This document shows, piece after piece, positions 965-18,224 of a DNA stretch of 64,000 nt. The first letter of the stretch is position 1. Every line of letters starts with the position of its first letter. The translations under genes and the position numbers were made by a program. The notes beneath the pieces were generated by a model. That model worked only from the letters and a program-made list of their open reading frames with translations, ran no database searches and had not been told where the DNA came from. The DNA lies in the NCBI GenBank assembly GCA_041736875.1, contig JBGSSV010000180.1, forward strand, positions 44,851-108,850, given 5' to 3'. Source of the stretch: Chthoniobacterales bacterium (GTDB lineage: Bacteria > Verrucomicrobiota > Verrucomicrobiia > Chthoniobacterales > JACTMZ01).

Positions 965-1102
965 TCATTGCTTTCTTGCAGACTTTGCTGCTTGGCCCAG
1001 TGCCTTAGGCAGGCTCCGGAATCAGGCCAGCCGCGCTCAAGTGGGACCTGTATCAAAGTGGCACCGCTTGACGGAATGCTGTATTGCCGTATCGATATAA
1101 AT

Positions 1103-1375
1103 ATGAAGACCACCATCGATATCCCTGAACCGCTTTACAAGAGAGCCAAGTTCCGCTGCATCGAAAAAGGTCAGACCCTGCGTGATATGGTCATTGCCTC
1201 TCTTCAGAAAGAACTGGCCGAACAGTGCTCGCCGCCGGCTCAGCCCTATTGGTCCAGCCGAAACCTGAGGCCGGCCTATGCCGAAGCTCTCGCCCGCGGG
1301 GACTTTTCCGGAGGCGCCGACTCCACCTTGATTGTCTCCGAAGACCGTGATTCGCGTGAAGGCGCTCTACTTTGA
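1103..1375 (+). CDS. vapB: Type II antitoxin, VapB-like (ribbon-helix-helix type)
   Basis: The internal ATG at 1103 gives MKTTIDIPEPLYKRAKFRCIEKGQTLRDMVIASLQKEL, a typical small antitoxin N-terminus. The 3' end overlaps the PIN gene. Confidence 0.7.
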   Translation: MKTTIDIPEPLYKRAKFRCIEKGQTLRDMVIASLQKELAEQCSPPAQPYWSSRNLRPAYAEALARGDFSGGADSTLIVSEDRDSREGALL

Positions 1376-1802
1376 CACCAGCTATCTCTTCCGGTTGTAT
1401 TGCGCGGAACCCGGTCATGAGAAAGTCAAAGCCCTCCTCCCGGGCATAGACAGAATTTTTTCCGTCCAGCTCGCCCGGGCCGAGTTTGCCCCTATCGTTT
1501 TGCGCAAGAGGCGTGAGAAGTCCGCAACTGACAGTGCTCTGACCGAGTTGCACGAACAGTTTCTCGACGAGGTGCGTGATGGCCACATCCAGTTAATTGT
1601 CCCGGAGGATTGCGAGTTTGAGGTCATCGAAGCCGTGCTTCGAAGTGCTTCCCCAGACACATTTTTACGGGCTGCAGACGCCTTGCACTTGGCCGCGGCC
1701 GCCTGGCATGGATTCAAGGAAGTCTATTCCAATGATCGCCATTTTCTCGCGGCAGCACCACTCTTCGGGCTGCGTGGTATCGACGTTGCTTCCGCTGGAT
1801 AG
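1332..1802 (+). CDS. vapC: PIN-domain toxin (VapC-like ribonuclease)
   Basis: ALYFDTSYLFRLY supplies the N-terminal acidic residue; ADALHLAAA and SNDRHF supply the C-terminal acidic residues. The start is uncertain (TTG 1332, GTG 1347 or GTG 1356). It overlaps the antitoxin stop at 1373-1375. Confidence 0.75.
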   Translation: MSPKTVIRVKALYFDTSYLFRLYCAEPGHEKVKALLPGIDRIFSVQLARAEFAPIVLRKRREKSATDSALTELHEQFLDEVRDGHIQLIVPEDCEFEVIEAVLRSASPDTFLRAADALHLAAAAWHGFKEVYSNDRHFLAAAPLFGLRGIDVASAG

Positions 1803-1863
1803 GTATTCTTCCTGCTACCTTGGCTGATCGTCATTTGAGGGTCACCCTTCCTCTCGCTGCCCC

Positions 1864-2724
1864 ATGCTTCAAGTTCCCGCCGACTACGAGATCCTCATCA
1901 AGCCGACGAAGGGCTGGTTGAAGCTGAACCTCGCCGATGTCTGGCGCTACCGGGACTTGCTGTTCCTGCTGGTCCATCGCGATTTTGTCTCCAAATACAA
2001 GCAGACGGTGCTCGGGCCGCTGTGGTTCATCATCCAGCCGTTGCTCCTAACAGTCGTCTTCACCATCATCTTCGGCAAAGTGGCACAGATCCCGACGGAC
2101 GGCTTGCCGCCGATGCTCTTCTACTTGGCCGGCCTGCTCGGATGGAATTACTTTGCGCAGACCTTCACTGGGACGTCAGGCACGCTCACGGCCAATGCCG
2201 GCATCTTCGGCAAGGTGTATTTTCCGCGCCTCGTCGTCCCGCTTTCGACAGTCATTTCCGGCTTCATCGCCTTTGGCATCCAATTGGCCACGTTCCTTTG
2301 CTTCTGGGCCTATTTCAAATGGTTCACAGCCGCTGGACCGACCATCCAGATGACGCCTGCGATCTTGTGGTTCCCGCTGCTGATGATCCAGATCGCCGCG
2401 TTGAGCTTGGGGGTGGGTTTGTGGCTGACTTCGCTCACGGCCAAATACCGCGACTTCGCCTTCCTCACCGGGTTTCTCGTGCAGATCTGGATGTATGCCA
2501 CACCGGTGATTTACCCGCTCTCCCGCATCCCTGAGGACTGGCGCTGGGTTGCCGTGCTGAACCCCATGACGATGCCCGTCGAATCCATCAAATACATGTT
2601 CCTCGGCCAAGGCATCGTCAGCCCCGCCTACTTCGCCATTTCCATCGCCATGACGCTCGTGCTCCTGCTGAGCGGAATTGTCCTGTTCAACAAGGTGGAG
2701 AAGACCTTTGTGGATACTGTGTAG
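1864..2724 (+). CDS. wzm: ABC-2 type polysaccharide export permease (Wzm/TagG-like)
   Basis: YRDLLFLLVHRDFVSKYKQTVLGPLWFIIQPLL matches the Wzm N-terminal signature, and multiple hydrophobic segments follow. Confidence 0.85.
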   Translation: MLQVPADYEILIKPTKGWLKLNLADVWRYRDLLFLLVHRDFVSKYKQTVLGPLWFIIQPLLLTVVFTIIFGKVAQIPTDGLPPMLFYLAGLLGWNYFAQTFTGTSGTLTANAGIFGKVYFPRLVVPLSTVISGFIAFGIQLATFLCFWAYFKWFTAAGPTIQMTPAILWFPLLMIQIAALSLGVGLWLTSLTAKYRDFAFLTGFLVQIWMYATPVIYPLSRIPEDWRWVAVLNPMTMPVESIKYMFLGQGIVSPAYFAISIAMTLVLLLSGIVLFNKVEKTFVDTV

Positions 2725-2780
2725 CCAGCGGAGTTGGTTGTGGGGACGATCGTCTGAAGATGGAAGAAAAGAGATGGTAG

Positions 2781-3155
2781 GTGGGTATAGGATTTGAGGA
2801 TTTGGACACATGGAGAGAGGCGCGGGCGTTGACCAAAGATGTCTACGCTCTCACCCGGGTGGGTCCGATGCCCAGGGATCGTCGGCTTTGCTCGCAGATT
2901 CAAGCTTCTGCCGTATCTGTCATGTCGAACGTGGCTGAGGGCTTCGAGAGGACTGGTAATGCTGAAGAGTTGCACCTTTACCATATCGCCCGAGCGTCCT
3001 GCGGTGAGGTTCGCTCGCAGCTTTACGTTGTTGAGGACGTCTATCCAGAGTGTGCGCGGGAGGCTCTTGAACTCCGCGACCGTTTCGAGGCCGTCGGACG
3101 CCTTGTTTTTGGGCTAATGGAGAGCACGGGGCGAAGGAGTGCCGAAAAGCGCTGA
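2781..3155 (+). CDS. Four-helix-bundle protein (23S rRNA intervening-sequence protein / Avd-like family)
   Basis: FEDLDTWREARAL..., QIQASAVSVMSNVAEGFER and ARASCGEVRSQLYV match this family. GTG start. Confidence 0.8.
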   Translation: MGIGFEDLDTWREARALTKDVYALTRVGPMPRDRRLCSQIQASAVSVMSNVAEGFERTGNAEELHLYHIARASCGEVRSQLYVVEDVYPECAREALELRDRFEAVGRLVFGLMESTGRRSAEKR

Positions 3156-3232
3156 GGCTAACTTTGGGAATCCCTGTTATCCCTCCCAACTTCACACTCC
3201 AATATCCCATATGCGCTGCCTAGCAGTTCACC

Positions 3233-4546
3233 ATGACACCTATTGTTGAAGTCAAAGGACTCTCCAAGCGCTACAGGCTCGGCGTGTTCAACGCGCGGAC
3301 GCTGCGCGAAGAGGCGGAGGTGTTTCTTGCGCGATTCTCGCGCAAGAAGGGAGATGGAAGTTCGAAGATCGGATATGGGTCCCTATCTACCAACTCCAAA
3401 CTCTATTCTCCTTCGTCAACTCCCGCTGACGACTTCTGGGCGTTGCGCGACGTTTCCTTCGACGTCCACCCCGGCGAGGTCATCGGCATCATCGGACGCA
3501 ACGGGGCGGGGAAGAGCACGTTGTTGAAAATTTTGAGCCGCATCACGGAGCCGACGTCAGGCGAGGCGCGGATTCGCGGGCGGGTGGCGTCGCTGCTTGA
3601 GGTGGGGACGGGATTCCATCCGGAGTTGTCGGGCCGGGAAAACATCTTCCTCAACGGGGCGATCCTCGGCATGACCAAGGCCGAGATCCGGAGGAAATTC
3701 GACGAGATCGTGGCTTTTGCGGAGATCGAGAAGTTCATCGATACGCCGGTGAAGCGTTACAGCTCGGGCATGTATGTGCGTTTGGCCTTTTCCGTTGCTG
3801 CGCATTTGGAGCCAGAAATTCTTATCATAGACGAAGTTCTTGCTGTCGGGGATGCTGGCTTCCAGAAGAAATGTCTTGGGAAAATGAAAGAGGTAAGTGG
3901 AAAGGGGGGGCGCACGGTGTTGTTCGTTAGTCACAACATGACGGCAGTGCGCTCACTTTGTTCTCGAGCTATTCTGTTGCGATCCGGGCACCTGGTGGCA
4001 GACGACGCGATCGAGTCCGTTGTTCACACCTATGAGAACACCGAGCTCAAAGCATCGCTTCATCGCAAATGGGACGAACCTCCGAGGGAAGAACACTCGG
4101 GGGTGCGCGGTGGGATCTATTTGAAAGAGGCCAAGGTGTTGGCCGGCAGCAGGCAAGCAGAAGCCATCCGGGTGAACGACACGTTCGAATTGGCATTCTG
4201 TGTGAGCAGTAATCGTCGCGCTAACATTGCTCTCACTCCTCATTACCTAGGTCCCTCCGGGGAAACGCTCTTTGCGGCACCTTCGTCGGCAATAGCGCTC
4301 AAACCGGGTGACACTTGGTATATCTGCCGTATACCCGGTGATCTTCTCAATGACGGGATCTACTCGGTGCGCCTGCTTGTCGTGGAGGAAGGCCCTCAGG
4401 TGTTGCAGATCGTCAATGATGCGCTGGTCTTCGAGGTTCACGATCTTCAACGTGAAGGTGCTTGGCTTGGCAAGTGGCCTGGGGTGATTCGTCCGAAGTT
4501 CGACTGGCGATTTGAATCAGTGCTAAAGGAGCGAATCTTGGCATGA
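3233..4546 (+). CDS. wzt: Polysaccharide ABC exporter ATP-binding protein with C-terminal glycan-binding domain (Wzt)
   Basis: Walker A GRNGAGKST, signature YSSGMYVRLAF and Walker B ILIIDEVLAVGD. A C-terminal extension of about 170 aa resembles the Wzt_C beta-sandwich. Confidence 0.9.
   Translation: MTPIVEVKGLSKRYRLGVFNARTLREEAEVFLARFSRKKGDGSSKIGYGSLSTNSKLYSPSSTPADDFWALRDVSFDVHPGEVIGIIGRNGAGKSTLLKILSRITEPTSGEARIRGRVASLLEVGTGFHPELSGRENIFLNGAILGMTKAEIRRKFDEIVAFAEIEKFIDTPVKRYSSGMYVRLAFSVAAHLEPEILIIDEVLAVGDAGFQKKCLGKMKEVSGKGGRTVLFVSHNMTAVRSLCSRAILLRSGHLVADDAIESVVHTYENTELKASLHRKWDEPPREEHSGVRGGIYLKEAKVLAGSRQAEAIRVNDTFELAFCVSSNRRANIALTPHYLGPSGETLFAAPSSAIALKPGDTWYICRIPGDLLNDGIYSVRLLVVEEGPQVLQIVNDALVFEVHDLQREGAWLGKWPGVIRPKFDWRFESVLKERILA
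3350..3426 (+). repeat. Degenerate heptamer tandem tract inside wzt (in frame)
   Basis: Read in one 7-nt register: ggagatg gaagttc gaagatc ggatatg ... aactcca aactcta ttctcct tcgtcaa ctcccgc. Confidence 0.6.
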
Positions 4547-5661
4547 AGACATTTGTTGAAGCCTACGTGCAAGTGCTCGTTGATGCGATCGGGGCGGACT
4601 TCGCCGACAATTACGATGGTGATCGTTTCGGTCCGGAGAAGAGGAGCCCGTATGGCCCCAAAACAATCCTGAGAAGTTGTTGCGCGATGTTCGGGCTCAC
4701 TTCTGTCGGTGCAGCGCGGCAGACAGTGAATTCCGGACTTCGGTTTGTCGAGCCGCACCGCGCCGACTTGGAGTGGCTTTACGGCAACTTGGCTGACGAG
4801 GAGTCCAAGCGGTGGCTGGTCAGCCTCATGGCATTTCGAGCCCTGCGGCACCGGAAGATTCGATTGCCAACCAACACGCTTGCATACTGGGAGGGCGTGC
4901 GGAAGGCCAAAGCTCTGGCGAGGAGTGAAGAATCCATCGATCTCGGGTTTCTCGGCTTCAGAGCCCGTAAACTGAATCTGTCGCCCGTCGGGTATCCGAT
5001 CGAGTTGTTTTTTGTTCCATTCGCTGTGCATATCCAGTTTGTTATGCAACCCTACCGCTGCGTCAGTGGGTCAACATTGATCGAAGCACAGGAGGGGGAT
5101 GTTGTTCTGGATTGCGGCGGTTGCTATGGGGACACGGCTTTGTATTTCGCGCACAAAGTCGGCCCGCAGGGCAAAGTTCTCAGCTTCGAATTCGTGCCAG
5201 CCAACCTCGATATCTGGCGCCAGAACGTCGCCCTCAATCCCAGGCTAGAGCCGGTCATACGATTGGTTGAGGCTGCGGTTAGCGACCGGTCGGGCGATGA
5301 ACTCTTCCTCGAGGGCAGTGGCCCGGGAACAAGGGTCGTGCAAGAGCCCACCAACAGCGGTGCACCAACTGTCCGGACAGCGGCGATCGACGAAGTTGTC
5401 GCACGGGAGGGTCTGTCGCGGGTAGATTTCATCAAGATGGACATCGAGGGCTCTGAGTTGTCCGCCTTGCGAGGGGCTGAACAGGCCTTGAGGCGTTTTC
5501 GCCCCAAGCTCGCCATCAGCGTTTACCACCAACTTGAGGACTTCTGGGCTGTTCCCCAATACCTTGAGGGTCTTGGTCTGGACTACCGTTTTTATCTCCG
5601 CCATTTCACCATCCACGCCGAGGAGACAGTTCTTTTCGCTGTGCCTCCGCCGGTCCGGTAG
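4543..5661 (+). CDS. FkbM-family methyltransferase with N-terminal extension of about 170 aa
   Basis: VLDCGGCYGDTALYFA and IKMDIEGSELSAL. ATGA overlap with the wzt stop. Confidence 0.85.
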   Translation: MKTFVEAYVQVLVDAIGADFADNYDGDRFGPEKRSPYGPKTILRSCCAMFGLTSVGAARQTVNSGLRFVEPHRADLEWLYGNLADEESKRWLVSLMAFRALRHRKIRLPTNTLAYWEGVRKAKALARSEESIDLGFLGFRARKLNLSPVGYPIELFFVPFAVHIQFVMQPYRCVSGSTLIEAQEGDVVLDCGGCYGDTALYFAHKVGPQGKVLSFEFVPANLDIWRQNVALNPRLEPVIRLVEAAVSDRSGDELFLEGSGPGTRVVQEPTNSGAPTVRTAAIDEVVAREGLSRVDFIKMDIEGSELSALRGAEQALRRFRPKLAISVYHQLEDFWAVPQYLEGLGLDYRFYLRHFTIHAEETVLFAVPPPVR

Positions 5662-5684
5662 AGCCTGAAAGTCCGCTTGAGTCT

Positions 5685-6383
5685 ATGCGCGTCGCCATCA
5701 TGCAGCCGTATTTTCTTCCCTACATCGGCTACTGGCAGCTCATCCATGCCGTCGACACCTTTGTGGTCTACGACAACATCAAATACACAAAAAAAGGGTG
5801 GATCAACCGGAACAGATTCTTGCTCAACGGCCGGGCGGAGATCTTTACATTGCCGCTCAGGAAGGACTCGGACTCAGTGGAGATTCGCCAGAGGCGCTTG
5901 GCCGAAACCTTCGACCGCACCGAGCTCATCAACCGCTTCGGCGCCGCTTACCGCAAGGCTCCAGTCTTCGGGACTTTTATGCCTTGGTTGGATAAAATCA
6001 TCCAGTTTCCATCTGACAATCTCTTCGAGTATCTCTTGCATTCGATTAGGCAGATTTGCGCCTATTTGGAGATCAGGACTCCGGTCATGGTGGCTTCGAG
6101 CGTGGACTGCGATCATTCGCTCAAAGCGGCCGAGCGGGTGAAGGCGATCGCCCAATCGCTTGGGGCTGACACTTACATCAACCCGATCGGCGGAACGGAG
6201 CTCTATTCCCGGGAGAATTTTGCCCAGCAGGGGCTCTCGCTCCGTTTTCTGCAGGCGCGCCCGTTTGAGTATGCGCAGGCCAGCCCGAACTTTGTGGCCT
6301 CGCTCTCGATCGTTGATGTGGCGATGTTCAATCACGCCAGTGCGGTTAAGCAGATCTTACGCCAAGGATATGACATCGCCTAA
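5685..6383 (+). CDS. WbqC-family protein
   Basis: The N-terminus MRVAIMQPYFLPYIGYWQLI is the characteristic WbqC-like start. Confidence 0.8.
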   Translation: MRVAIMQPYFLPYIGYWQLIHAVDTFVVYDNIKYTKKGWINRNRFLLNGRAEIFTLPLRKDSDSVEIRQRRLAETFDRTELINRFGAAYRKAPVFGTFMPWLDKIIQFPSDNLFEYLLHSIRQICAYLEIRTPVMVASSVDCDHSLKAAERVKAIAQSLGADTYINPIGGTELYSRENFAQQGLSLRFLQARPFEYAQASPNFVASLSIVDVAMFNHASAVKQILRQGYDIA

Positions 6384-7113
6384 ACATTCTGCGGCCGACT
6401 CCCTTGACCAACACGTTGGTGCCTACGAGGGCGACAACATCTATGACTTCGATAACGAGATCCTGCTGAATTGGTATCCGCAACGGGTCATTGGCCTCAC
6501 GGGCACCGAGAAGACTCTGCTCGAACTCGGCTTGGGGCATGGGTTCTCCACGCAAAGGTTTTCGAAAGCATTCTCCCGTCATGTGGTGGTCGAAGGCTCC
6601 CCGGCAGTGATTCGGCATTTCAAGGCACAGAATCCCCATTGCCCCGCTCACATCGAGGCGGCACTTTTCGAAAACTTCACCACCGACGAGATCTTCGACG
6701 TGATCGTCATGGGTTTTGTCCTTGAACATGTCGAGGACCCGGTCGCCATCCTTCGGCGATTCCGTCGTTTTCTCGCGCCGGGCGGGCGGGTATTTGTTGC
6801 CGTGCCAAACGCGGAGGTGCTGAACCGCAGGCTGGGTCATGCCATGGGTATCCTTGATGACATCACCAAGCCCTCGGAGAATGATCTTCTACTGGGGCAC
6901 CGGCGTTACTACACCTCCTCCACGCTCCGCGATGATCTGGCGCGAGCTGGTTTCCAAGTAGCCCGTCTCGAAGGGATCTATCTTAAGCCGTTGAGCACGC
7001 CGCAGATCATCTCCTTGCGCCTTGACCGGAGTGCCATCGATGCGCTTTGCGCCGTTGGCGTGAATTACCCCGAACTCAGCTGCGGTCTGCTCGCGGAGGC
7101 GAGTCCGCTGTGA
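6370..7113 (+). CDS. Class I SAM-dependent methyltransferase (247 codons)
   Basis: LLELGLGHGFST and FVLEHVEDPVAILRRFRRFLAPGGRVFVAVPN. The internal ATG at 6370 overlaps the end of the WbqC gene by 14 nt. The upstream part of track ORF 6160.. lies inside the WbqC gene. Confidence 0.8.
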   Translation: MTSPKHSAADSLDQHVGAYEGDNIYDFDNEILLNWYPQRVIGLTGTEKTLLELGLGHGFSTQRFSKAFSRHVVVEGSPAVIRHFKAQNPHCPAHIEAALFENFTTDEIFDVIVMGFVLEHVEDPVAILRRFRRFLAPGGRVFVAVPNAEVLNRRLGHAMGILDDITKPSENDLLLGHRRYYTSSTLRDDLARAGFQVARLEGIYLKPLSTPQIISLRLDRSAIDALCAVGVNYPELSCGLLAEASPL

Positions 7114-7955
7114 AGATACTGCTCGTTGGCGCTCGATCTGCGGTCGCTCAGGTCCTGGCGCCTTCCCTTGGGGCTCTGGGCGACGTTGTCACCGCGGGGC
7201 CTGAGGGCTGTGAAGTCCCTCTCGACCTTGAGGGGCCGCTGCAAAAGTTTCGTTTGCCTCAGGGCACGGACATCGTGGTCAATACGGCGGCTTCTTTTGG
7301 CACTGGGGGATTTGCGTCTCTTGCCGACGGGATTGCGGTCAACGTCCTTGGATCTCTCAAGTTGTGCGAGGCGTCCCTCGCCGCCGGGGTGAAGCACTTT
7401 GTGCAGATCTCCAGCATTAACGCCACTTTGCGTGCGGATTCACCCTACTACGATGCGTATGCCCTGACCAAGCGGCAGGGTGATGAGGCGATCGAACTGC
7501 GCTGTCGAGGCGCCAGCATGGTTTTGACCATTCTCCGGCCCTCACAACTCTATGGCCACCCAATGTTCCGGAGACGCCAGCTGTTTGTTTACAGCGCCAT
7601 GGACAAGGCCATGCGTGGTGAGGATGTGCTCATCCACGGAAGGCGGGCGCCTTTGCGCAATTACCTGCACGCGAGGGATCTCAGTAGATTCGTCTCGGCT
7701 GTGATCGAGAAGCGCGTGGCTGGCTGCTATCAGTGCACGCACCCGAGCGATGCCAGTTTTGAAGATGTTGCGCGTGCCGCCATTGAGGCGGCGAAATCAA
7801 AAAGCCGCGTGCAGTTGGATGTGAGCAAAAGCAATATCGCCGACAACGTGTTCCCTTTCGATCCCGCACTCTACAAGGCCCTTGGAATGTCTCCTCTGAC
7901 TTCGCTGCATGATGGGGTGGCCGAGTCGGTGCAAAGCATGATGTTGCCCCAATGA
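7110..7955 (+). CDS. NAD(P)-dependent epimerase/dehydratase-like (SDR) protein
   Basis: N-terminal VKILLVGARSAVAQVL Rossmann-like start and a YxxxK-like YALTK. GTGA overlap with the previous stop. Confidence 0.65.
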   Translation: MKILLVGARSAVAQVLAPSLGALGDVVTAGPEGCEVPLDLEGPLQKFRLPQGTDIVVNTAASFGTGGFASLADGIAVNVLGSLKLCEASLAAGVKHFVQISSINATLRADSPYYDAYALTKRQGDEAIELRCRGASMVLTILRPSQLYGHPMFRRRQLFVYSAMDKAMRGEDVLIHGRRAPLRNYLHARDLSRFVSAVIEKRVAGCYQCTHPSDASFEDVARAAIEAAKSKSRVQLDVSKSNIADNVFPFDPALYKALGMSPLTSLHDGVAESVQSMMLPQ

Positions 7956-8911
7956 CAACCGTCTTGATTTCCGGGGCGAGCGGGGTCGTGGGCTACGGCA
8001 TCCTTCGCTCTCTGAAAAAGGCGGGCCACGACCTGCGGCTTCTCGGCACAACAACGCACGCGCACTCCGTCGCGCCGGCCTTTTGCGATGTGTTTGAGCG
8101 GGCCACGGCCACCGAGAACGCGAATTACTTTCCGTGGCTCTTGGAGACCATCGGCCGACACAAGGTGGACGTCGCCATTCCGGGCATCGAGATGGACATG
8201 CAATCATGGTCAGATCACCGGCCGCTGCTGCAGGGCGTGGTCAAATGCGTGCTTAACAGTCGGGATCTCATCGCGTTGTGCCGTGACAAGTGGTTGTTCT
8301 ACCTGGATCTGTTGCAGCGCTCTGATCCTTGTGCCATCCCAACCTACAACAGTGGTAAATTTGACGAACTCGTGGCCGCGTGCGGGCTGCCCTTTCTGCT
8401 GAAGCCGAGGCGAGGATTCGGCTCGAAGGGCATTGTCAAAGTCGAGAACGAGACGGTTTTTCTGACGATGGAGGCTCGTTTCGGGCCCGAGCTTATCGCA
8501 CAGCCGATCGTCGGATCGGATCAGACCGAATACTCGATTTCTTGCTTCGGTGATGGCGAGGGCGGCCTACTGAATATGTTCTCTCTGCGTCGAAGATTGG
8601 GCCCCGGCGGGTTTACCGAATGGGCTGAGGTGGTAGACAGCGAGCCTTTCGCCGCGACTGTGTCCCGTCTGTGTTCATTCTATCACCCCCTGGGGCCGAC
8701 CAACTTTCAATTTCGCGACGACTTCGGCGAACTCAAGCTTCTCGAGATCAATCCAAGGATCTCTTCCGCAACCTCCATCCGGGCGGCCTTCGGATACAAT
8801 GAACCCCGCATGGCAGTGGACTTCTTCATGCAGGGGCTGCGGCCCCCGGCGCCGGAGACTGGTCGGGGCGTGGCCGTCCGCTACATGGAGGACTACATCA
8901 TTCCTGCATGA
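7952..8911 (+). CDS. ATP-grasp domain protein (carboxylate-amine ligase type)
   Basis: PFLLKPRRGFGSKGI and LKLLEINPRISS are typical ATP-grasp motifs. ATGA overlap upstream. Confidence 0.8.
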   Translation: MTTVLISGASGVVGYGILRSLKKAGHDLRLLGTTTHAHSVAPAFCDVFERATATENANYFPWLLETIGRHKVDVAIPGIEMDMQSWSDHRPLLQGVVKCVLNSRDLIALCRDKWLFYLDLLQRSDPCAIPTYNSGKFDELVAACGLPFLLKPRRGFGSKGIVKVENETVFLTMEARFGPELIAQPIVGSDQTEYSISCFGDGEGGLLNMFSLRRRLGPGGFTEWAEVVDSEPFAATVSRLCSFYHPLGPTNFQFRDDFGELKLLEINPRISSATSIRAAFGYNEPRMAVDFFMQGLRPPAPETGRGVAVRYMEDYIIPA

Positions 8912-9600
8912 AACTGGGGCTCATCTCCGACATCCACGGAAACTACGAGGCGCTCAAAGCCGTCCTTGGGGAACTGGATCGCCGTGGGGTTGATGAAATC
9001 CTCTGCTTGGGCGATGTCGTGGGCTACTACCCGCAGATCAATGAGTGCTGCGAGGAGCTGCGCGCCAGGAAGGTGTCGTCGCTCATGGGTAATCATGACT
9101 GGTATTTGTGCGGGGGCGGATTTTGTCCGCGTTCGCAGAGCGTCAACGACTGTCTGGCTTACCAACGTCAGCTCATCACTGCGGAGAATCTCAACTGGCT
9201 CGGGGGGCTGCGGACGCATGCGCGCGTGGGGGATCTGAAGCTGGTTCATGGTGGGTGGTGCGACCCCCTTGACGAGTATCTGACCGAACCGTCTGAGGAG
9301 TATTTTACCCGCGTCGTCGGGAGTATCTTTGCCTCGGGACACACGCACATGCAGGCTTTGCATCGCTGGAAGGGGAAGACTTACTGCAATCCTGGATCCG
9401 TCGGCCAACCGCGAGACGGCGACCCGCGGGCGGCCTTTGCCATCTTTGACGGGGAATTTCATCTCCTCCGCGTCGCTTACGAAATGGAACCCGTATTCGG
9501 CCTCATGGCTACCCTTGGTTTCAGCGACTACTACTACGGTTGTCTGAAGACCGGAGCACGCAATCTCTGCCGTCTGCCGGCTTCGACTCAAGCGCGATGA
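8908..9600 (+). CDS. Metallophosphoesterase (YfcE/MJ0936-like)
   Basis: Motifs DIHGN, GDVVGY, GNHD and GHTH in canonical order. Confidence 0.85.
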   Translation: MKLGLISDIHGNYEALKAVLGELDRRGVDEILCLGDVVGYYPQINECCEELRARKVSSLMGNHDWYLCGGGFCPRSQSVNDCLAYQRQLITAENLNWLGGLRTHARVGDLKLVHGGWCDPLDEYLTEPSEEYFTRVVGSIFASGHTHMQALHRWKGKTYCNPGSVGQPRDGDPRAAFAIFDGEFHLLRVAYEMEPVFGLMATLGFSDYYYGCLKTGARNLCRLPASTQAR

Positions 9601-10586
9601 AGAGATGGCCAACCTTCCGATGGCGCAAATTGGGGCACCTGTTCGGGCCGGCGAATCCTCTGGCTCCGCCCTGGATGCACTCCCATGCGCAAACTCCGGC
9701 CGTTCTCGCGTGCGGCGATTACGTGCGCATTTTTTTCTGCACCCGCCCGCCGCCTGAGGAGACAGGACTGTTCACGAGTCTGATCGGCTATGTGGACGTT
9801 GATTCCGCGGACATTTTCCGGGTTCTCCGGGTCAGCCAGGCACCCGTGCTCAGTTTGGGAGCGCGGGGCGCTTTCGACGAGTTTGGCACTAATCCGGTAT
9901 CCGTGATTTCCGTGGGGGACGAGGTGAGAGCCTATTATGCGGGCTGGTCGCGATGCGAGTCAGTGCCTTTCAATGCGGCGATCGGCTTGGCCGTCAGTCG
10001 GGACGGCGGTGACACATTCCAGCGCCTCGGACCGGGGCCTCTGCTCTCCTACACGCCGGACGAGCCTTTTGTTCTCGGGAGTCCCAAAATCCGACGATTC
10101 GGCGACGTTTGGTATTTACATTATGCTGCCGGCCGGCGCTGGCTCAAGTCGCCTGGACGCCCGGAACCCGTCTACCGGATTCGGTGCGCCACGTCCACTG
10201 ACGGTCTCACGTGGCATAAGGCGGGGTTGGACATCATCAAGCCTCAGTTGGGCGAGGACGAGTGCCAGGCGGGGGCCGACATCGTCGAGTTTGCGGGGCG
10301 CTGGCACATGTTTTTCTCCTATCGCTGGGCCTTGGACTTCAAAAACAAAGCCCGGGGCTACCGCATTGGTTACGCCGTCTCCGATGATCTGCTCAATTGG
10401 TCGCGCTGCGACGCTGCCGCGGGGATTGACGTTTCCGCCGAAGGTTGGGACTCCGAAATGGTCAGCTATGCGAACGTGTTCCACCACAATGGGACTCTTT
10501 ACATGCTCTACCAAGGCAACGAGGTGGGCCGGCACGGCTTTGGCCTGGCTGTGCTTGATCACTTCAGCGAGGAGTCGCGCGCATGA
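9597..10586 (+). CDS. Predicted beta-propeller protein (GH43/GH32/GH130-like fold), function unknown
   Basis: Repeated blade-like segments (VRAYYAGWS, LAVSRDGGDTF, CATSTDGLTW, YAVSDDLLNW). Start taken at the ATGA overlap at 9597. Confidence 0.55.
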   Translation: MKRWPTFRWRKLGHLFGPANPLAPPWMHSHAQTPAVLACGDYVRIFFCTRPPPEETGLFTSLIGYVDVDSADIFRVLRVSQAPVLSLGARGAFDEFGTNPVSVISVGDEVRAYYAGWSRCESVPFNAAIGLAVSRDGGDTFQRLGPGPLLSYTPDEPFVLGSPKIRRFGDVWYLHYAAGRRWLKSPGRPEPVYRIRCATSTDGLTWHKAGLDIIKPQLGEDECQAGADIVEFAGRWHMFFSYRWALDFKNKARGYRIGYAVSDDLLNWSRCDAAAGIDVSAEGWDSEMVSYANVFHHNGTLYMLYQGNEVGRHGFGLAVLDHFSEESRA

Positions 10587-11563
10587 TGCAGTGGCAGAAA
10601 GTCGGGAGAATCTTCAGCCCAGCGCAGCACACACTGCCTATGGGGTGCTTCGCCTTTGCCAAAAGCCCTCAGGCTGTGGTCTTCGACAGGTTCGTGCGGG
10701 TCTATTTCTCCTCCTGCCGTCGCGATGAATCCGGGAAGTATCTCAGCCATGTTTGCTACGCGGATTATACCCCGGACTTCGGGGCGATACTTGATGTCGC
10801 GCAACATCAGGTCCTGCCTCTCGGAGAACTGGGCGCTTTTGATGAGCACGGAATCTTCCCTGTCCACATCTACCGAGAGGGTAACGAGTTGCGAGCCTAC
10901 ACGACGGGATGGAGTCGCCGGGTGTCGGTCTCCGCTGAGTCCTCGATCGGCTTGGCCATAAGCCGTGACCAAGGCCGAACGTTTGAGAAGATTGGGCCAG
11001 GCCCGATTCTCAGCGCATCTCTGCACGAACCGTTCTTGGTGGCGGATGGTTTTGTTCTCAAGATCGCGGGCACCTACCACATGTGGTATATCTACGGGCA
11101 GCGATGGATCAACGGGGTCTTAGGCGGCCAAGCGGAGAGGGTTTACAAGATCAGCCACGCAACCTCTGACGATGGCGTAGTCTGGACGAGGACAGGTTGC
11201 CAGCCGATCCCGGACAGCCTTGGTCCTGACGAGTGTCAGGCTTTGCCTTCGGTTCTGGAGGTGGATGGTGTTTACCACATGGTCTTTTGCTACCGCGATG
11301 CCATCGGCTTCCGCACGGAGCCGGGCAAGGGCTATCGCTTGGGATATGCCTATTCCCGCGATCTTCTCAATTGGCAGCGGGACGACGGCGTGCTCGGCCT
11401 TGAGCCCTCCGGCAGCGGGTGGGACGGAGAAATGATGTGTTACCCGCACATCTTTCGAGCCGGCAACAGAATTGCGCTCCTCTACAACGGCAATGGTTTT
11501 GGCCTGGAGGGCTTTGGTTTGGCCTATTTGGAGTCAGAAATCAACGAGCACATGAACTCATGA
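10583..11563 (+). CDS. Paralog of the preceding beta-propeller protein
   Basis: Collinear similarity to 9597..10586 (LRAYTTGWS, LAISRDQGRTF, HATSDDGVVW, YAYSRDLLNW). ATGA overlap. Confidence 0.55.
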   Translation: MMQWQKVGRIFSPAQHTLPMGCFAFAKSPQAVVFDRFVRVYFSSCRRDESGKYLSHVCYADYTPDFGAILDVAQHQVLPLGELGAFDEHGIFPVHIYREGNELRAYTTGWSRRVSVSAESSIGLAISRDQGRTFEKIGPGPILSASLHEPFLVADGFVLKIAGTYHMWYIYGQRWINGVLGGQAERVYKISHATSDDGVVWTRTGCQPIPDSLGPDECQALPSVLEVDGVYHMVFCYRDAIGFRTEPGKGYRLGYAYSRDLLNWQRDDGVLGLEPSGSGWDGEMMCYPHIFRAGNRIALLYNGNGFGLEGFGLAYLESEINEHMNS

Positions 11564-12303
11564 AAAGGGACTACGATCAGGAAGCACAAGACAACGCCGA
11601 TAGGCAGTATGGTTACGATTTCGATTACGACGTCATGCACCGCTACATGGTCGACTCTTTTCGGCCGCTGCTGCGGCCTGGCTCGGCCCTCGAACTAGGA
11701 AGCTTCGAGGGGCGATTCACTGGGCGTCTGCTCGGGCTCTTCGATCATCTGACCTGCGTCGAAGCTTCCGGTGCAGCCGTCCACAAGGCACGCGCGCTGC
11801 ATGGCGAGCGTGCCAAGATTTTGGAGGGGCTCTTTGAGGAGGTTGTCCTGCCATCAAAGTTCGACAACATTTTCCTCACCCACGTTTTGGAGCATATGGA
11901 GGACGCGGTGGGCCTCTTGCGCCGCATCAACGATGAATGGCTCTCCGAGACCGGCCGCTTGTTTCTGGTCTGCCCCAATGCGAATGCGCCATCGCGGCAG
12001 ATTGCCGTGAAGATGGGCGTCATCTCGCACAACGCTGCCGTTACGGTTGGGGAGGCCCAACATGGGCATCACCGCACTTACTCGCTGGACACCTTGGAGC
12101 GAGACGCGGTGGCCGCCGGCCTGCGCGTCGTTCAGCGCTCGGGAATCTTCTTCAAAGCCTTGGCCAATTTCCAGTGGGACAAAATTCTGAACACCGACGT
12201 GATCTCCCAAGAATATCTTGATGGTTGTTACGCTCTGGGACAGGTGTATCCGGATTTGTGCGCCAGCATCTTCCTGCTCTGCGAGAAAGGCCGATCGGCC
12301 TAA
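11560..12303 (+). CDS. Class I SAM-dependent methyltransferase (247 codons), paralog of 6370..7113
   Basis: LELGSFEGRFT and THVLEHMEDAVGLLRRINDEWLSETGRLFLVCPN. Same length as 6370..7113 and collinear with it. ATGA overlap. Confidence 0.8.
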   Translation: MKRDYDQEAQDNADRQYGYDFDYDVMHRYMVDSFRPLLRPGSALELGSFEGRFTGRLLGLFDHLTCVEASGAAVHKARALHGERAKILEGLFEEVVLPSKFDNIFLTHVLEHMEDAVGLLRRINDEWLSETGRLFLVCPNANAPSRQIAVKMGVISHNAAVTVGEAQHGHHRTYSLDTLERDAVAAGLRVVQRSGIFFKALANFQWDKILNTDVISQEYLDGCYALGQVYPDLCASIFLLCEKGRSA

Positions 12304-12315
12304 GAGTCAGCTTTT

Positions 12316-13437
12316 GTGAACGAGGCAAAACTCTACGTTGGTCGTCCGAATTTGGGCAGCCGGGAAGCCTTCCTGGCCCGGGTCAATGGCATTCTGGACC
12401 GGCGCTGGCTCTCGAATGACGGCCCGGTACTCCAGGAATTCGAGCGGAAAATCGCCTCGCTTCTCGGGGTTAAACACGTGGTCGCACTCAACAACGCCAC
12501 GGCGGCCCTGGAAATCGCCAGCAAGGCGCTCGAACTCCAGGGCGAGGTTATCGTCCCAAGCTACACTTTTGTGGCCACGGCGCATGCGCTCCAGTGGCAG
12601 GGCATCACGCCGGTGTTCGGCGACATGGATCCTACCACCCACAACATCGACCCGACGAAAATTGAGGAGTTGATCACGCCTCGCACGACCGGAATCGTCG
12701 GGGTTCACGTCTGGGGAAGAGGCTGCGATACGGCGGCGATCGAGGCCGTCGCTGCGCGCCACAACCTCAAGGTCATGTATGATGCCTCGCATGGATTTGC
12801 CTGTTCGACTGGAGGCCGGATGCTCGGAAACTTCGGGGCCTGCGAAGTGTTCAGCTTCCACGCGACGAAGTTCATCAATTGCTTCGAAGGCGGCGCATTG
12901 GTCACCAATGACGATGCGCTGGCCGAAAAAGTCCGGCTCATGCGCAACTTCGGTTTCGTCGACTACGACAAGGTCATCTACCTCGGCATCAACGGCAAGA
13001 TGAACGAGGTCTGCGCGGCCATGGGCCTGACCAACCTCGAAGCGATGGATGAGATTGTCGCCACCAATCTCCGCAACTACGAAGCCTACAGGGAGGGGCT
13101 GGCCGGCCAGCCCGGTATTTCAATCATAGCCTACGACCGGGCCGAGCGGAACAACTACCAATATGTCGTGATCGAGGTGGACCCAGAACTGAGCCCGCGG
13201 AGTCGCGACGAAATTGTGGCGGCTCTTCACGCCGAGAATGTCATTGCGAGAAAGTATTTTTGGCCGGGCTGCCATCGGATGGAACCGTATCGCACAACCC
13301 AGCCGGACGCCGGGAAGAGGTTGACCGAAACCGAGCGGATTGCTGGCAGGGTGATCGTCCTGCCCACTGGGCAGAGTGTAGAGAGAGCGACCGTGGGGAG
13401 GGTTTGTCGCATCATCGAACGGGCGCTTCGCCGCTGA
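12316..13437 (+). CDS. DegT/DnrJ/EryC1/StrS-family PLP-dependent sugar aminotransferase
   Basis: YTFVATAHAL, DASHGF and FSFHATKFI (PLP lysine context). GTG start. Confidence 0.9.
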   Translation: MNEAKLYVGRPNLGSREAFLARVNGILDRRWLSNDGPVLQEFERKIASLLGVKHVVALNNATAALEIASKALELQGEVIVPSYTFVATAHALQWQGITPVFGDMDPTTHNIDPTKIEELITPRTTGIVGVHVWGRGCDTAAIEAVAARHNLKVMYDASHGFACSTGGRMLGNFGACEVFSFHATKFINCFEGGALVTNDDALAEKVRLMRNFGFVDYDKVIYLGINGKMNEVCAAMGLTNLEAMDEIVATNLRNYEAYREGLAGQPGISIIAYDRAERNNYQYVVIEVDPELSPRSRDEIVAALHAENVIARKYFWPGCHRMEPYRTTQPDAGKRLTETERIAGRVIVLPTGQSVERATVGRVCRIIERALRR

Positions 13438-13468: not shown

Positions 13469-14533
13469 ATGGAGACGTCATCAATGCTGGTGAAGCCGGT
13501 GCCAATCACTGAGCAGGCCTGGCCAGAGGGGACTGTGCCAACGGTGAGCGTATTCAACTGGACCTACAACCATGCGATGTTTATCCGGGCAAGTATTGAC
13601 AGCATTCTCATGCAGGAAACGACCTTTCCGGTGGAAATTATCATACACGATGACGCATCGACCGACGGCACGACGGAGATCATACGGCAATACGAGGCAA
13701 TTTATCCACATCTGTTCCGCAACATACTCCAAGAAGAAAACCAATTGTCTCAGGGTAGGAGTGTGATGAAGCCGCTATACGCTGCTCCCCTAGGCGAGTT
13801 CATCGCTCTAACGCACGGCGATGACTACTGGACAAGCGAGTCCAAGTTGCAAAAGCAGGTGGAAATGCTCATGTGCAATCCTCAAGCTTCATTGGCGTAT
13901 CACCCAATCGTGTCTGAGCGGAATGGACAGAAGGAAGTCGATGTGTCGTCGGATGGCTTTCGAGTCAAATCTGTGGCAGACGTCCTGCAAATACGGGGTA
14001 TCCACACCAGTGCGATGGTGTTTCGGCGCTGCTCTTTGCCTGGTGCCAGCGCTTGGATGCATGGTTTGCCGGTTGGTGATATACCACTCCAGTTGCACTT
14101 GGCGGATTCTGGCGAAATACTCTTCATGCCAGAGGAAAGCAGCGTCTACCGAAAACACCCAGGCGGCTGGACTGCAGGCGCTCGATTGGAGACTCCGCGC
14201 GTCGTAGATTCACTTCGCCAAGTGCTTTTAGGTTTCAATCGATACACAAGACAGAGGTATAGAGCCTTAATCTTTCGAAGGTTGCTCGAACTGCACATCG
14301 GCGCGGTTGCCGCTGCGGAGCAGGAAAGCGACAGGAAAGCTGTGTCGCGGCATCGGTGGTTGGCCATGACCACATGGTCGAAGCTTCCGGAGGTGTCAGG
14401 ATTGATCAACTGCGTCGCCGGTAATGTTTTTGGTCCGATTGTGCGCAAGGCATACTTTCGGCTTTGCACTGTAAAAAATTCCCTACTCAACAGGGGCAGG
14501 TTGTCTTCCAAAAATCAGACCCGAGGCGACTGA
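13469..14533 (+). CDS. Glycosyltransferase family 2
   Basis: VSVFNWTYNHAMFIRASIDSILMQETTFPVEIIIHDDASTDGT. Visibly more A/T-rich than its neighbours. Confidence 0.8.
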   Translation: METSSMLVKPVPITEQAWPEGTVPTVSVFNWTYNHAMFIRASIDSILMQETTFPVEIIIHDDASTDGTTEIIRQYEAIYPHLFRNILQEENQLSQGRSVMKPLYAAPLGEFIALTHGDDYWTSESKLQKQVEMLMCNPQASLAYHPIVSERNGQKEVDVSSDGFRVKSVADVLQIRGIHTSAMVFRRCSLPGASAWMHGLPVGDIPLQLHLADSGEILFMPEESSVYRKHPGGWTAGARLETPRVVDSLRQVLLGFNRYTRQRYRALIFRRLLELHIGAVAAAEQESDRKAVSRHRWLAMTTWSKLPEVSGLINCVAGNVFGPIVRKAYFRLCTVKNSLLNRGRLSSKNQTRGD

Positions 14534-16961: not shown

Positions 16962-17543
16962 GTGACTGCGATGGCCAAGTTGACGAATCAAATCTATAAG
17001 GCTGTTCTGGCTTGGCGACGATCTTGGGCTAGGGCGCAGGGCGTGGAATTGGGACGAGACGTGGGATTGGCACGGGGGGTGGATTTCAATGTCGGCAGCG
17101 GGTTCAAGAATTGCCTCAAAAATGCGAAGGCGCGGGGGCGCATACGCTTGGGCGAACGGGTGTGGGTTGAGAGGGGTGCTGTGCTTTGGGCGTTCGATGG
17201 CGCGATCACGACGGCGGACAATGTGTATCTTGGCCCCTATGTGACTGTCTATGGCCATGGCGGTGTCGAGATTGGCGAGCATACTCTCGTTTCGATGAAG
17301 GCGACGATTCTCTCCTCGAGCCATGCGATTCCACAGATTGGCAAGCTGATCCGGGAAACGCCGGACGAGTTGCTCCCCACAAAGATCGGCCGGGATGTGT
17401 GGATCGGTGCGAACGCGGTGATCCTTGGCGGAGTGACGATCGGAGATGGAGCGGTGGTTGCTGCCGGAGCAGTCGTTAACCGAGATGTGGAAGCGGGCGC
17501 CATCGTCGGCGGGGTGCCGGCGCGTTTGCTCCGCAAGCGTTGA
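16962..17543 (+). CDS. Hexapeptide-repeat sugar O-acetyltransferase
   Basis: IGRDVWIGANAVILGGVTIGDGAVVAAGAVVNRDVEAGAIVGGVPA. The start may be ATG 16971. Confidence 0.8.
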   Translation: MTAMAKLTNQIYKAVLAWRRSWARAQGVELGRDVGLARGVDFNVGSGFKNCLKNAKARGRIRLGERVWVERGAVLWAFDGAITTADNVYLGPYVTVYGHGGVEIGEHTLVSMKATILSSSHAIPQIGKLIRETPDELLPTKIGRDVWIGANAVILGGVTIGDGAVVAAGAVVNRDVEAGAIVGGVPARLLRKR

Positions 17544-17690
17544 AGTTGGCTGAAGTCTGTAGGCTGTCTTCAGCGAAACCACCGACAGAGCCGAAAGCCA
17601 ACATCCAGCAAGTAGCCAAGTGGCTGATTCCTTTTGAGCTGGCCGCTGTCTGCTGCCAACCGAAGACTGCCAACTGACGACTCAATCTTC

Positions 17691-18224
17691 ATGCAATTCC
17701 AACCGACCAAGCTCAGCGGGGTAATGCTGATCAAAACGCGCGTATTTCGCGATGAGCGGGGATTTTTTCTCGAGTCGTGGAACAAGCGGGCGTTCGACGA
17801 CGCGGCGGGGTGCACAGTGGAGTTTGTGCAAGACAATCACTCTAGATCGACGCGAGGCGTCTTGCGAGGACTGCATTACCAAGCCGAACCCATGGCGCAG
17901 GCTAAGCTGATCACCGTGATGCGTGGGACAATTTTCGACGTGGCGGTGGACATACGGCCCAAGTCGCCGACCTATGGGCAGTGGGTGGGCGAGGTGCTGA
18001 CCGACGAGTCGCGGGAAATGCTGTGGATCCCGGAGGGTTTTGCCCACGGATTCTATGTGCTCTCGGACTTCGCTGATGTGGTCTATAAGACAACGAACTA
18101 CTACTCGCCGGAGCACGAGCGGTGTATCCGGTGGGATGATGACACACTGGCGATCGACTGGCGCCTGGAGGGGAGTCCTCGAGTCTCGGCCAAAGATAAA
18201 CGTGGAGATTTCTTTAGGTTATGA
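17691..18224 (+). CDS. rfbC: dTDP-4-dehydrorhamnose 3,5-epimerase
   Basis: MQFQPTKLSGVMLIKTRVFRDERGFFLESW, RGLHYQ and IPEGFAHGF. Start at the internal ATG 17691. Confidence 0.9.
   Translation: MQFQPTKLSGVMLIKTRVFRDERGFFLESWNKRAFDDAAGCTVEFVQDNHSRSTRGVLRGLHYQAEPMAQAKLITVMRGTIFDVAVDIRPKSPTYGQWVGEVLTDESREMLWIPEGFAHGFYVLSDFADVVYKTTNYYSPEHERCIRWDDDTLAIDWRLEGSPRVSAKDKRGDFFRL

Follow-up and report, generated by a model that had tools for sequence, protein, structure and literature searches.

A modular WbqC/β-propeller gene cassette, recurring across many phyla, as a candidate amino-sugar tailoring unit in a Chthoniobacterales polysaccharide locus

What is made by a tightly packed run of nine genes that joins a WbqC-family protein and a DegT aminotransferase to two β-propeller paralogues? 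The run lies at 5685-13437 of a 64,000-nucleotide stretch of contig JBGSSV010000180.1 from a Chthoniobacterales bacterium (assembly GCA_041736875.1); the whole stretch is here called the window, all coordinates are window positions unless a locus is named, and L-numbers are labels of the loci compared. A first-pass annotation, made from the sequence without database searches, had suggested that the nine genes are an undescribed pathway for an acylated and methylated amino sugar. We find that this cassette is a real, widespread and uncharacterised variant of N-acyl amino-sugar tailoring. The kind of sugar tailoring is well known, but the enzymes used for it here (WbqC and the propeller pair) are not. 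What follows supports the proposal that a polysaccharide locus here holds genes for amino-sugar tailoring.

Coordinates and junction letters bear out the nine same-strand open reading frames (ORFs) and every overlap first described for them, and hidden Markov model (HMM) searches of Pfam and NCBIfam agree with all of the domain calls. In order, and all on the + strand, the genes encode WbqC (5685-6383; PF08889); a class-I S-adenosylmethionine (SAM) methyltransferase, here MT1 (6370-7113; PF13489, Methyltransf_23, E = 1e-19); a short member of the extended short-chain dehydrogenases/reductases (SDR; 7110-7955; PF01370, E = 4e-17); an ATP-grasp protein (7952-8911; PF15632, ATPgrasp_Ter, E = 6e-13; PRK12767-like NF009402, E = 7e-52); a metallophosphoesterase (8908-9600; Metallophos_2, PF12850, E = 5e-22); the propeller BP1 (9597-10586) and its paralogue BP2 (10583-11563), both with sub-threshold GH32, GH43 and GH130 Pfam matches; MT2, again a class-I SAM methyltransferase (11560-12303; PF13489, E = 1e-10); and DegT (12316-13437; PF01041, E = 5.5e-107). 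WbqC and MT1 overlap by 14 nt (ATGACATCGCCTAA), the next junction is GTGA at 7110, those at 7952, 8908, 9597, 10583 and 11560 are ATGA, and DegT, the ninth gene, begins with GTG after a 12-nt gap behind MT2 and without overlap. Independent gene calls on four contigs of the same metagenome study give the same nine-ORF coordinates, and the runs containing the sequence carry the label hot springs metagenome. Upstream, the same-strand run continues with wzt and fkbM, which overlap by 4 nt and leave a 23-nt gap before WbqC, and downstream a GT2 gene starts 31 nt past DegT. Since the run extends on both sides, the window alone does not fix nine as a boundary.

BP1 has thousands of close homologues, and a scan of one genome per species gave at least 557 confirmed BP1 relatives in about 12 phyla. 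The nine window proteins were compared by tblastn with the 80 best loci, of which the 60 with enough flanking sequence were counted; these 80 are the loci nearest to the window BP1, so the variant frequencies given here are biased. They come from Verrucomicrobiota, Alpha-, Beta- and Gammaproteobacteria, Bacteroidota, Campylobacterota, Myxococcota, Geobacteraceae, Nitrospirota, Acidobacteriota, Chloroflexota, Chlamydiota, Elusimicrobiota and a lineage of the candidate phyla radiation (CPR). The closest cassette relatives among them are in Verrucomicrobiota metagenome-assembled genomes (MAGs), one from Chthoniobacterales (L012), one from Terrimicrobiaceae (L013) and a third (L014), with BP1 66-72% identical. 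Carriers available in culture are, for example, Roseateles saccharophilus, Bradyrhizobium rifense, Methylobacter luteus, a Herbaspirillum sp. and Achromobacter sp. Root83. BP1 and BP2 are present in all 60 loci and are adjacent to each other in every one; WbqC is found in 56, DegT in 55 and MT2 in 53, MT1 in 26, the SDR in 20, and the ATP-grasp protein and the phosphoesterase in 19 each. The same gene order, on whose conservation in related genomes the first-pass annotation had made its proposal depend, was found in many phyla, and the recurrence of the block in this order is more than chance.

The loci fall into four main architectures. Architecture A reads DegT-WbqC-MT1-SDR-ATP-grasp-phosphoesterase-BP1-BP2-MT2; usually DegT stands immediately before WbqC, and in the window, L012, L013 and L040 it is shifted to the end, the far-end DegT of the window being DesI-like. 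Architecture B, the commonest, is DegT-WbqC-BP1-BP2-GNAT-MT2, with a GNAT acetyltransferase of 155 aa (L035:11929-12396). In architecture C a different ATP-grasp protein, of 433 aa (L018:8675-9976), is found in the order DegT-WbqC-MT1-ATP-grasp-BP1-BP2-MT2, and in architecture D, from Methylobacterium, BP1-BP2-MT2 stands alone beside rimP-nusA. Within the 60 loci MT1 was seen only where some ATP-grasp variant was also present, and the MT1-SDR-ATP-grasp-phosphoesterase block and GNAT are mutually exclusive alternatives. The nine genes are thus a five-gene core (DegT-WbqC-BP1-BP2-MT2) with an optional four-gene accessory block that alternates with GNAT: the nine-gene pathway of the first-pass annotation holds as a conserved block and not as an indivisible one. 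In L012 an insertion of about 1.7 kb (L012:7616-9312), with two small ORFs of 126 and 210 aa, separates the phosphoesterase gene from that of the ATP-grasp protein, and therefore the tight coupling of the window genes is not universal.

We propose that the cassette is a modular unit which tailors a nucleotide-sugar and is slotted into a surface-polysaccharide locus, an explanation which, taken as a whole, we consider to have about an even chance of being correct. Gene content, motifs, conservation and modularity are what we observe, and from them we infer all substrates and the reaction order of the following scheme. By homology, the DesI-like DegT would aminate dTDP-4-keto-6-deoxy-D-glucose, supplied by RmlA and RmlB encoded elsewhere, to dTDP-4-amino-4,6-dideoxy-D-glucose (dTDP-viosamine). 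WbqC would attach an amino-acid-type group to the 4-amine, as suggested by elimination in Escherichia coli O121 and by a weak BshC-like fold. In the commoner variant GNAT would N-acetylate the new amine; in the variant of the window the ATP-grasp protein would take the GNAT slot and cap the amine with another carboxylate, with support from the SDR, the metallophosphoesterase and MT1, a role suggested by their families and by their exclusivity with GNAT. BP1 and BP2 would probably act as a pair, in a conserved non-hydrolytic step on a small-molecule intermediate, and MT2 would methylate the product of that step. Transfer of the completed sugar would fall to the GT2, and export of the polymer to Wzm/Wzt. 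More specifically, WbqC may be a compact, distantly BshC-like class of ligase, not recognised before, that joins amino acids to amino sugars, and the obligate pair BP1/BP2 a new, non-hydrolytic family of GH-like ancestry that remodels a nucleotide-sugar intermediate, together yielding an undescribed N-acyl, methylated 4-amino-6-deoxy surface sugar in at least 12 phyla; this fuller version is tentative, and we think it rather less probable than its being wrong in some part.

The closest relative with defined chemistry is the O-antigen cluster of E. coli O121, the serogroup in which N-acetylglycine occurs in amide linkage (PMC7685785); 4-amino-4,6-dideoxy-D-glucose is known to carry N-acetylglycyl as an N-acyl group (PMC3210612). 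The O-antigen cluster of the O121:H19 strain 16-9255 reads galF-tviB-epimerase-rfbB-rfbA-DegT-WbqC-GNAT-wzx-GT2-acetyltransferase-wzy-asnB-GT4-GT4-gnd, and its WbqC shares 36-38% identity with those of the cassettes, 36% with that of the window. Going by family names and the O121 structure, we take TviB/TviC to make N-acetylgalactosaminuronic acid (GalNAcA), AsnB to amidate it, the serine-acetyltransferase-like protein to O-acetylate, and the three glycosyltransferases, Wzx and Wzy presumably to do the rest. With jobs thus assigned to all the other genes, WbqC is the sole candidate for the addition of glycine, with GNAT acetylating that glycine. A DegT 4-aminotransferase and WbqC followed by an amine-capping enzyme within a polysaccharide locus is what the cassette has in common with O121 and Shigella dysenteriae type 7, whose sugar is 4-(N-acetylglycyl)amino-4,6-dideoxy-D-glucose and whose genes are rfbB-rfbA-vioA-wbqC-GNAT. 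The amine acylation, possibly aminoacylation, envisaged at first pass probably holds, as it fits both the O121 DegT-WbqC-GNAT set with its N-acetylglycyl-viosamine and the alternation of GNAT with the ATP-grasp block in sister loci.

Architecture B shares its gene order with O121. L035 reads TviB-TviC-(VapC)-DegT-WbqC-BP1-BP2-GNAT-MT2-Wzx-GT2, which mirrors O121 but for the inserted BP1-BP2 and MT2, and the DegT of architecture B is 62% identical to that of O121. O121, however, lacks the propellers, MT1, MT2, the SDR, the ATP-grasp protein and the phosphoesterase, whereas the window cassette has no GNAT, which in architecture B is present, and carries a DesI-type DegT at its far end, with no rmlA or rmlB in the scanned part; a WbqC directly 3' of and overlapping DegT, a feature by which the O121-type pathway is defined, is absent from the window and present in most sister loci. 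Within E. coli, DNA like O121 wbqC was detected by blastn in only 13 of 5426 complete genomes, all with the DegT-WbqC-GNAT triad; most of the 13 bear the label O121 or belong to known O121 strains, and one bears the label O103. For relatives of the O121 WbqC, the order is RmlB-RmlA-DegT-WbqC-X-GNAT in Plesiomonas shigelloides and Desulfotalea psychrophila, and Pseudoalteromonas has DegT-WbqC-X followed by sulfotransferases, without RmlB/RmlA or GNAT. Here X is a protein of 319-325 aa without a Pfam match (L096:7684-8661, L097:7695-8669 and L098:7691-8650), whose copies in these three are 34-53% identical to each other and which is another uncharacterised partner family of WbqC. That X is a single propeller was ruled out, as it matches neither the BP1 nor the BP2 HMM; by eye, its N-terminus resembles a degenerate DegT/pyridoxal-phosphate-fold protein.

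What would cap the amine in the window, where GNAT is missing? The mutual exclusion of GNAT and the accessory block is most simply read as the ATP-grasp protein placing on this amine a carboxylate different from acetate. It scores 49.2 bits against PF15632 (cut-off 29.1) and 176 bits against NF009402, under the cut-off of 218; a profile search gave 2pn1 (2.9e-19), then carbamoyl-phosphate synthetase, RimK and L-amino-acid ligase. The ATP-binding Lys151 and the Mg-binding Glu265-Ile-Asn267 (E-x-N) are invariant in 21 orthologues, and this Lys and E-x-N are shared with its best match, the PRK12767-type "carbamoyl-phosphate-synthase-like" ATP-grasp of glycan loci (2pn1), itself a structural-genomics entry with no substrate assigned. 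We therefore regard it as a putative carboxylate-amine ligase and an alternative to GNAT. The phosphoesterase (79 bits against PF12850, cut-off 27) matches 3rqz at 1.6e-31 and 3qfm at 1e-12 in profile searches, has invariant metal motifs (D8-I-H10, G35-D36, G61-N62-H63-D64, H114 and G144-H145-T-H147) and is predicted to be a calcineurin-like enzyme of the YfcE/SapH-like sort. For the SDR the best structure is 3m2p (E = 3e-19) and the top matches are nucleotide-sugar epimerases, dehydratases and reductases; Ser101-Tyr117-Lys121 is invariant and the GxxGxxG glycine motif is seen in degenerate form, as GARSAVA in the window protein and as GGTSSLA in the consensus; the protein appears to be of the nucleotide-sugar epimerase/reductase type. 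The catalytic motifs of the ATP-grasp protein and the phosphoesterase are intact, as is the Ser-Tyr-Lys triad of the SDR, and together with MT1, a paralogue of MT2 at 29% identity, the SDR and the phosphoesterase may prepare or trim the capping group or the sugar.

The supply of the amino sugar is suggested by DegT. Its best-scoring model is TIGR04427 (DesI; 476 bits, cut-off 650), it matches the DesI structure 2po3 (E = 1.8e-110), and we predict from this that it is a DesI-type sugar 4-aminotransferase making dTDP-4-amino-4,6-dideoxy-D-glucose. It shares only 36-41% identity with the VioA-like DegT found in front of WbqC in most loci, and 40% with the O121 DegT; for the canonical WbqC-adjacent DegT, too, DesI is the best-scoring model. 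DesI and VioA share one reaction, the conversion of dTDP-4-keto-6-deoxy-D-glucose to dTDP-4-amino-4,6-dideoxy-D-glucose. Because the two make the same product, both types of DegT look like alternative suppliers of one intermediate. The window also encodes RmlC, the dTDP-4-dehydrorhamnose 3,5-epimerase (17634-18224, + strand; PF00908, E = 1.4e-72), and therefore the locus draws on the dTDP-4-keto-6-deoxyglucose pool.

WbqC itself belongs to a family whose sequences form over 10,000 clusters at the 50% identity level. The window protein (232 aa) matches PF08889 with 213.7 bits (E = 4e-63, cut-off 21.3) over model positions 1-217 of 218, and the most conserved residues of the family are N-terminal (QPxYxPYxGY ... 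D ... GWxNRN). Sequence searches of the PDB with the single sequence and with both profiles returned nothing credible. An AlphaFold2 model built on an alignment of 136 diverse representatives reached a pLDDT of 97.9 and a pTM of 0.93, and has an α/β fold that opens with a β-α-β unit. An earlier model was discarded, having come from a shallow alignment (31 sequences, Neff, the effective sequence number, 1.7), with a pLDDT of 50 and meaningless Foldseek matches. Foldseek with the good model gave no match at E <= 0.001. Its top match was BshC, followed by class I tyrosyl-tRNA synthetases, phosphopantetheine adenylyltransferase and E1 enzymes. BshC is credited with the addition of cysteine to the amine of glucosaminyl-malate in bacillithiol synthesis. 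As BshC thus adds an amino acid to an amino-sugar amine, the match agrees with the genomic evidence, and both proteins would be expected to act on a free amino-sugar amine. BshC differs in its length, 540 aa against 232 aa, and in that the fold match is weak and a sequence-profile match absent; we treat the likeness as a lead only and not as family membership. By this analogy, and by that with O121, we propose that WbqC adds an amino-acid-type group to the sugar 4-amine. The family has been called uncharacterised where it is mentioned (PMC5532660), and has been placed in a proSx-GT4-WbqC-lmbE-tRNA(ProX)-murG operon (PMC10404621), where once more an enzyme that activates an amino acid is found together with a sugar deacetylase, by which an amine is exposed. 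Among WbqC-family representatives, P0245 and P0340 are natural fusions, one of WbqC with GNAT (377 aa) and one of a Wzx-type flippase with WbqC (731 aa), the latter of which could be a gene-calling artefact. In a Methylobacter sp. two tandem WbqC paralogues, 40-41% identical to the window WbqC, sit between a DesI-type DegT and BP1-BP2, with no MT2 (L048:7915-9900).

The BshC likeness also invites the reading that the cassette makes a soluble small molecule, such as a bacillithiol- or mycothiol-like amino-sugar conjugate. The pairing of WbqC with GT4 and LmbE in the tRNA-ProX operon is reminiscent of mycothiol and bacillithiol genes (PMC10404621), and the Methylobacterium sub-module stands outside glycan loci. 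Nearly all of the loci, however, lie among glycosyltransferases, Wzm/Wzt or Wzx, and Wzy-like genes, and the O121 product is found in the O antigen, so we hold a soluble product to be very improbable.

Several points weigh against our proposal of a nucleotide-sugar tailoring unit in a polysaccharide locus. That the O121 WbqC adds glycine is a deduction by elimination, and literature searches found no functional study of WbqC/PF08889, in O121 or otherwise. The BshC match (4wbd) is weak, with E = 9.6e-3, a probability of 0.66 and a template-modelling (TM) score of 0.39, and a sequence link between WbqC and BshC is absent, with no HMM match at E <= 10. Neither rmlA nor rmlB was found in the window parts scanned (0-45 kb and selected ORFs beyond), where Pfam gave no NTP_transferase and no dTDP-glucose dehydratase; another part of the genome may encode them. 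The window DegT lies about 6 kb downstream of WbqC instead of next to it, FkbM being the gene that precedes WbqC, and with the hexapeptide acyltransferase (16962-17543) it could belong to a viosamine branch of its own. The sampling of loci by nearness to the window BP1, noted above, counts here as well. Finally, the Methylobacterium BP1-BP2-MT2 module lies outside glycan loci and has no DegT or WbqC within 10 kb, and therefore the propellers need not act on an amino sugar. In these genomes (L005, L019, L021 and L063, at about 10000-12750) the module sits beside the rimP-nusA-infB operon and is followed by small proteins without Pfam matches. A 231-aa protein behind BP1-BP2-MT2 was considered as a divergent WbqC and ruled out (hhalign probability 0.1).

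What, then, do the propellers do? BP1 and BP2 are 41% identical to each other. A BP1 profile matches the GH130 β-1,2-mannobiose phosphorylase 7fip (Teth514_1789) at E = 8e-9 and GH32 enzymes at about 1e-7, and BP1 is predicted to be a cytoplasmic, five-bladed β-propeller-like protein of the GH130/GH32/GH43 superfamily. This fold is what the pair would share with GH130 phosphorylases and GH32 fructosidases, from which it differs by scores far under the cut-offs of curated models, by the lack of a signal peptide and by its place in a biosynthetic operon. NF052550 (GH130) gives 42.5 bits for BP1 and 34.3 bits for BP2 against a cut-off of 450, neither window propeller matches PF04041 (GH130) in the Pfam search, and the GH32 Pfam matches of 16-21 bits stay below the cut-off of 22.1. 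The catalytic residues of GH32 are an Asp in WMNDPNG, an Asp in RDP and a Glu in EC; by local resemblance, judged by eye, the propellers may have SPK where GH32 has RDPK, and an invariant E222-C/A-Q where it has EC. Asn28, Asp98 and Asp287 are mannose-site and catalytic residues of Teth514_1789 (PMC4264767). In our alignment Asn28 pairs with a variable Y/N and Asp98 with Ser162 or variable residues, and Asp287 is outside the propeller alignment; the alignment is apparently shifted by one blade, and the residue result is therefore provisional. The propellers thus appear to be distant GH130/GH32-like proteins without the canonical catalytic residues: "GH-like", as they were first called, is right as to distant relationship and overstated in so far as the GH130 residues are not conserved under the available alignment. 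A canonical GH130 phosphorylase identity was rejected on scores and residues, and a catabolic role on the absence of signal peptides from both N-termini and the nesting of the genes in a biosynthetic operon.

BP1 and BP2 are among the best-conserved cassette genes. BP1 is 53-72% and the pair 50-72% identical across phyla, and the high identity argues for a small invariant substrate rather than variable polymer acceptors. Invariant polar residues common to both are, in BP1 numbering, R44, D94, E95, R119, E156, E222, Q224, H237, R243, R270, D272 and D285, and each protein has additional invariants of its own, which suggests two related, intact pockets. MT2, 59-81% identical across the 53 loci that have it, is a core gene accompanying BP1-BP2.

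Could the propellers and MT2 form a module of their own? The cassette might consist of two or three independent modules side by side, in which DegT-WbqC and the cap make an N-acyl amino sugar while BP1-BP2-MT2 works separately, for example as a phosphorylase-type glycosyl-transferring pair with a methyltransferase that builds or caps a methylated sugar branch on a different substrate. BP1-BP2-MT2 is found alone by rimP-nusA in three Methylobacterium genomes, an Achromobacter locus (L028) has MT1-SDR-BP1-BP2 with no DegT or WbqC nearby, and propellers are missing beside the DegT-WbqC of E. coli O121, Plesiomonas, Desulfotalea and Pseudoalteromonas. Furthermore, the nearest solved relatives of the propellers are GH130 phosphorylases that use sugar-1-phosphates, and the phosphoesterase could supply sugar-1-phosphate from a nucleoside-diphosphate (NDP)-sugar. 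Against such independence, WbqC lies within 6.5 kb of BP1 in 56 of the 60 loci, and in architecture B WbqC abuts BP1 with GNAT beyond BP2, so that the propellers are nested among the amino-sugar genes. The 50-72% identity of BP1/BP2 across phyla is also unusually high for enzymes with variable polymer acceptors, and the available alignment shows no conservation of GH130 Asn28 and Asp98 (PMC4264767). Independent modules therefore strike us as improbable, though by no means negligible.

A single tailoring unit remains our preferred reading, and its setting is a glycan locus of about 40 kb. The cassette is preceded, on the + strand throughout, by a Wzm-type ABC-2 permease (1864-2724; PF01061, E = 3e-19), a Wzt-type ABC ATPase (3233-4546; PF00005, E = 1.6e-22, residues 71-202 of 437) and an FkbM-family methyltransferase (4543-5661; PF05050, E = 1e-23). 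It is followed by a GT2 glycosyltransferase (13469-14533, + strand; PF00535, E = 1.4e-15), which is a candidate transferase for the cassette product, and by the hexapeptide acyltransferase and RmlC given above. The locus holds five FkbM-family (Methyltransf_21) methyltransferases, further GT2, GT4 and GT11 glycosyltransferases downstream and a weak Wzy-like protein. Because Wzm and Wzt adjoin glycosyltransferases, it is an ABC-transporter-type surface-polysaccharide locus, of the O-polysaccharide kind. Wzm/Wzt also lie 5' of the cassette in L010, L012, L020, L038, L039, L066 and L070, and the synteny of Wzm with the cassette extends over several phyla. At equivalent positions, FkbM homologues (38-66% identity) occur in L010, L012, L038, L039 and L044 and GT2 homologues (31-53% identity) in L010-L013, L020, L038 and L044; the FkbM methyltransferase accompanies the cassette in ABC-transporter-type loci.

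This setting raises a refinement of our explanation rather than a strict alternative to it, namely that the cassette makes a non-reducing-end cap which ends chain growth and is read by the C-terminal domain of Wzt in ABC-dependent export. Methylated caps are established terminators in E. coli O8/O9a. Wzm-Wzt-FkbM-cassette synteny is seen in Verrucomicrobiota (the window and L012), in Flavobacterium (L038, L039 and L044) and in the unclassified MAG L010, the window Wzt has about 200 additional C-terminal residues past its ATPase domain, and the L010 Wzt has a weak Wzt_C match. Most loci of architecture B, however, use a Wzx flippase (L035:13156-14670), as does O121, and the cap role therefore cannot be general. 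We judge it unlikely.

How new is such a pathway? N-acyl viosamines in O antigens are a known kind of tailoring (PMC3210612). The description "undescribed" stands in that we found no literature on the full gene set, and gives way in that DegT-WbqC with an acyl cap is linked by association to a defined sugar. Anthrose and the viosamine of Pseudomonas syringae flagellin are further examples of N-acyl and methyl tailoring of 4-amino-4,6-dideoxyhexoses. Our literature searches found no paper linking the full gene set, or the propeller pair, to a defined sugar, and those combining DUF377 or GH130 with O-antigen, or ATP-grasp, metallophosphoesterase and aminotransferase with O-antigen, found no functional study. 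The initial count of at least three unexplained steps is borne out by the phosphoesterase and the two propellers, and WbqC is to be counted as a fourth.

WbqC is annotated in countless O-antigen loci with no reaction assigned, and the propeller pair, in hundreds of species, is equally blank. The comparison presented here yields a concrete question: is dTDP-viosamine the acceptor to which WbqC joins glycine or some other amino acid? E. coli O121 is a major Shiga-toxin-producing serogroup and its O-antigen determinant would, if the model is true, depend on the WbqC-linked step. Solving that step would explain amide-linked amino acids on bacterial surface sugars, add enzymes for glyco-engineering and improve the annotation of polysaccharide loci in many environmental phyla.

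Some further features of the locus were noted. Exosortase (EpsH) genes are present at both of its ends, one at 39870-41471, with a DUF3485-like C-terminal portion, and one 5' of the window start (L001:1-380); a MoxR-DUF58-transglutaminase set lies past the downstream exosortase, at 42215-45842. The G+C content is 0.56-0.60 over the glycan genes, including the cassette (about 1-32000), and 0.62-0.66 beyond about 32 kb; the lower G+C of the glycan part fits horizontal exchange. Between an FkbM methyltransferase gene and wzm, at 968-1802, lie a PIN-domain (VapC-like) toxin gene and, upstream of it, a small ORF; a gene for a "23S rRNA intervening-sequence protein" lies at 2781-3155, between wzm and wzt, and in L035 a VapC-like gene (7564-7938) stands just 5' of DegT. 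Toxin-antitoxin-type genes thus seem to recur within these glycan loci.

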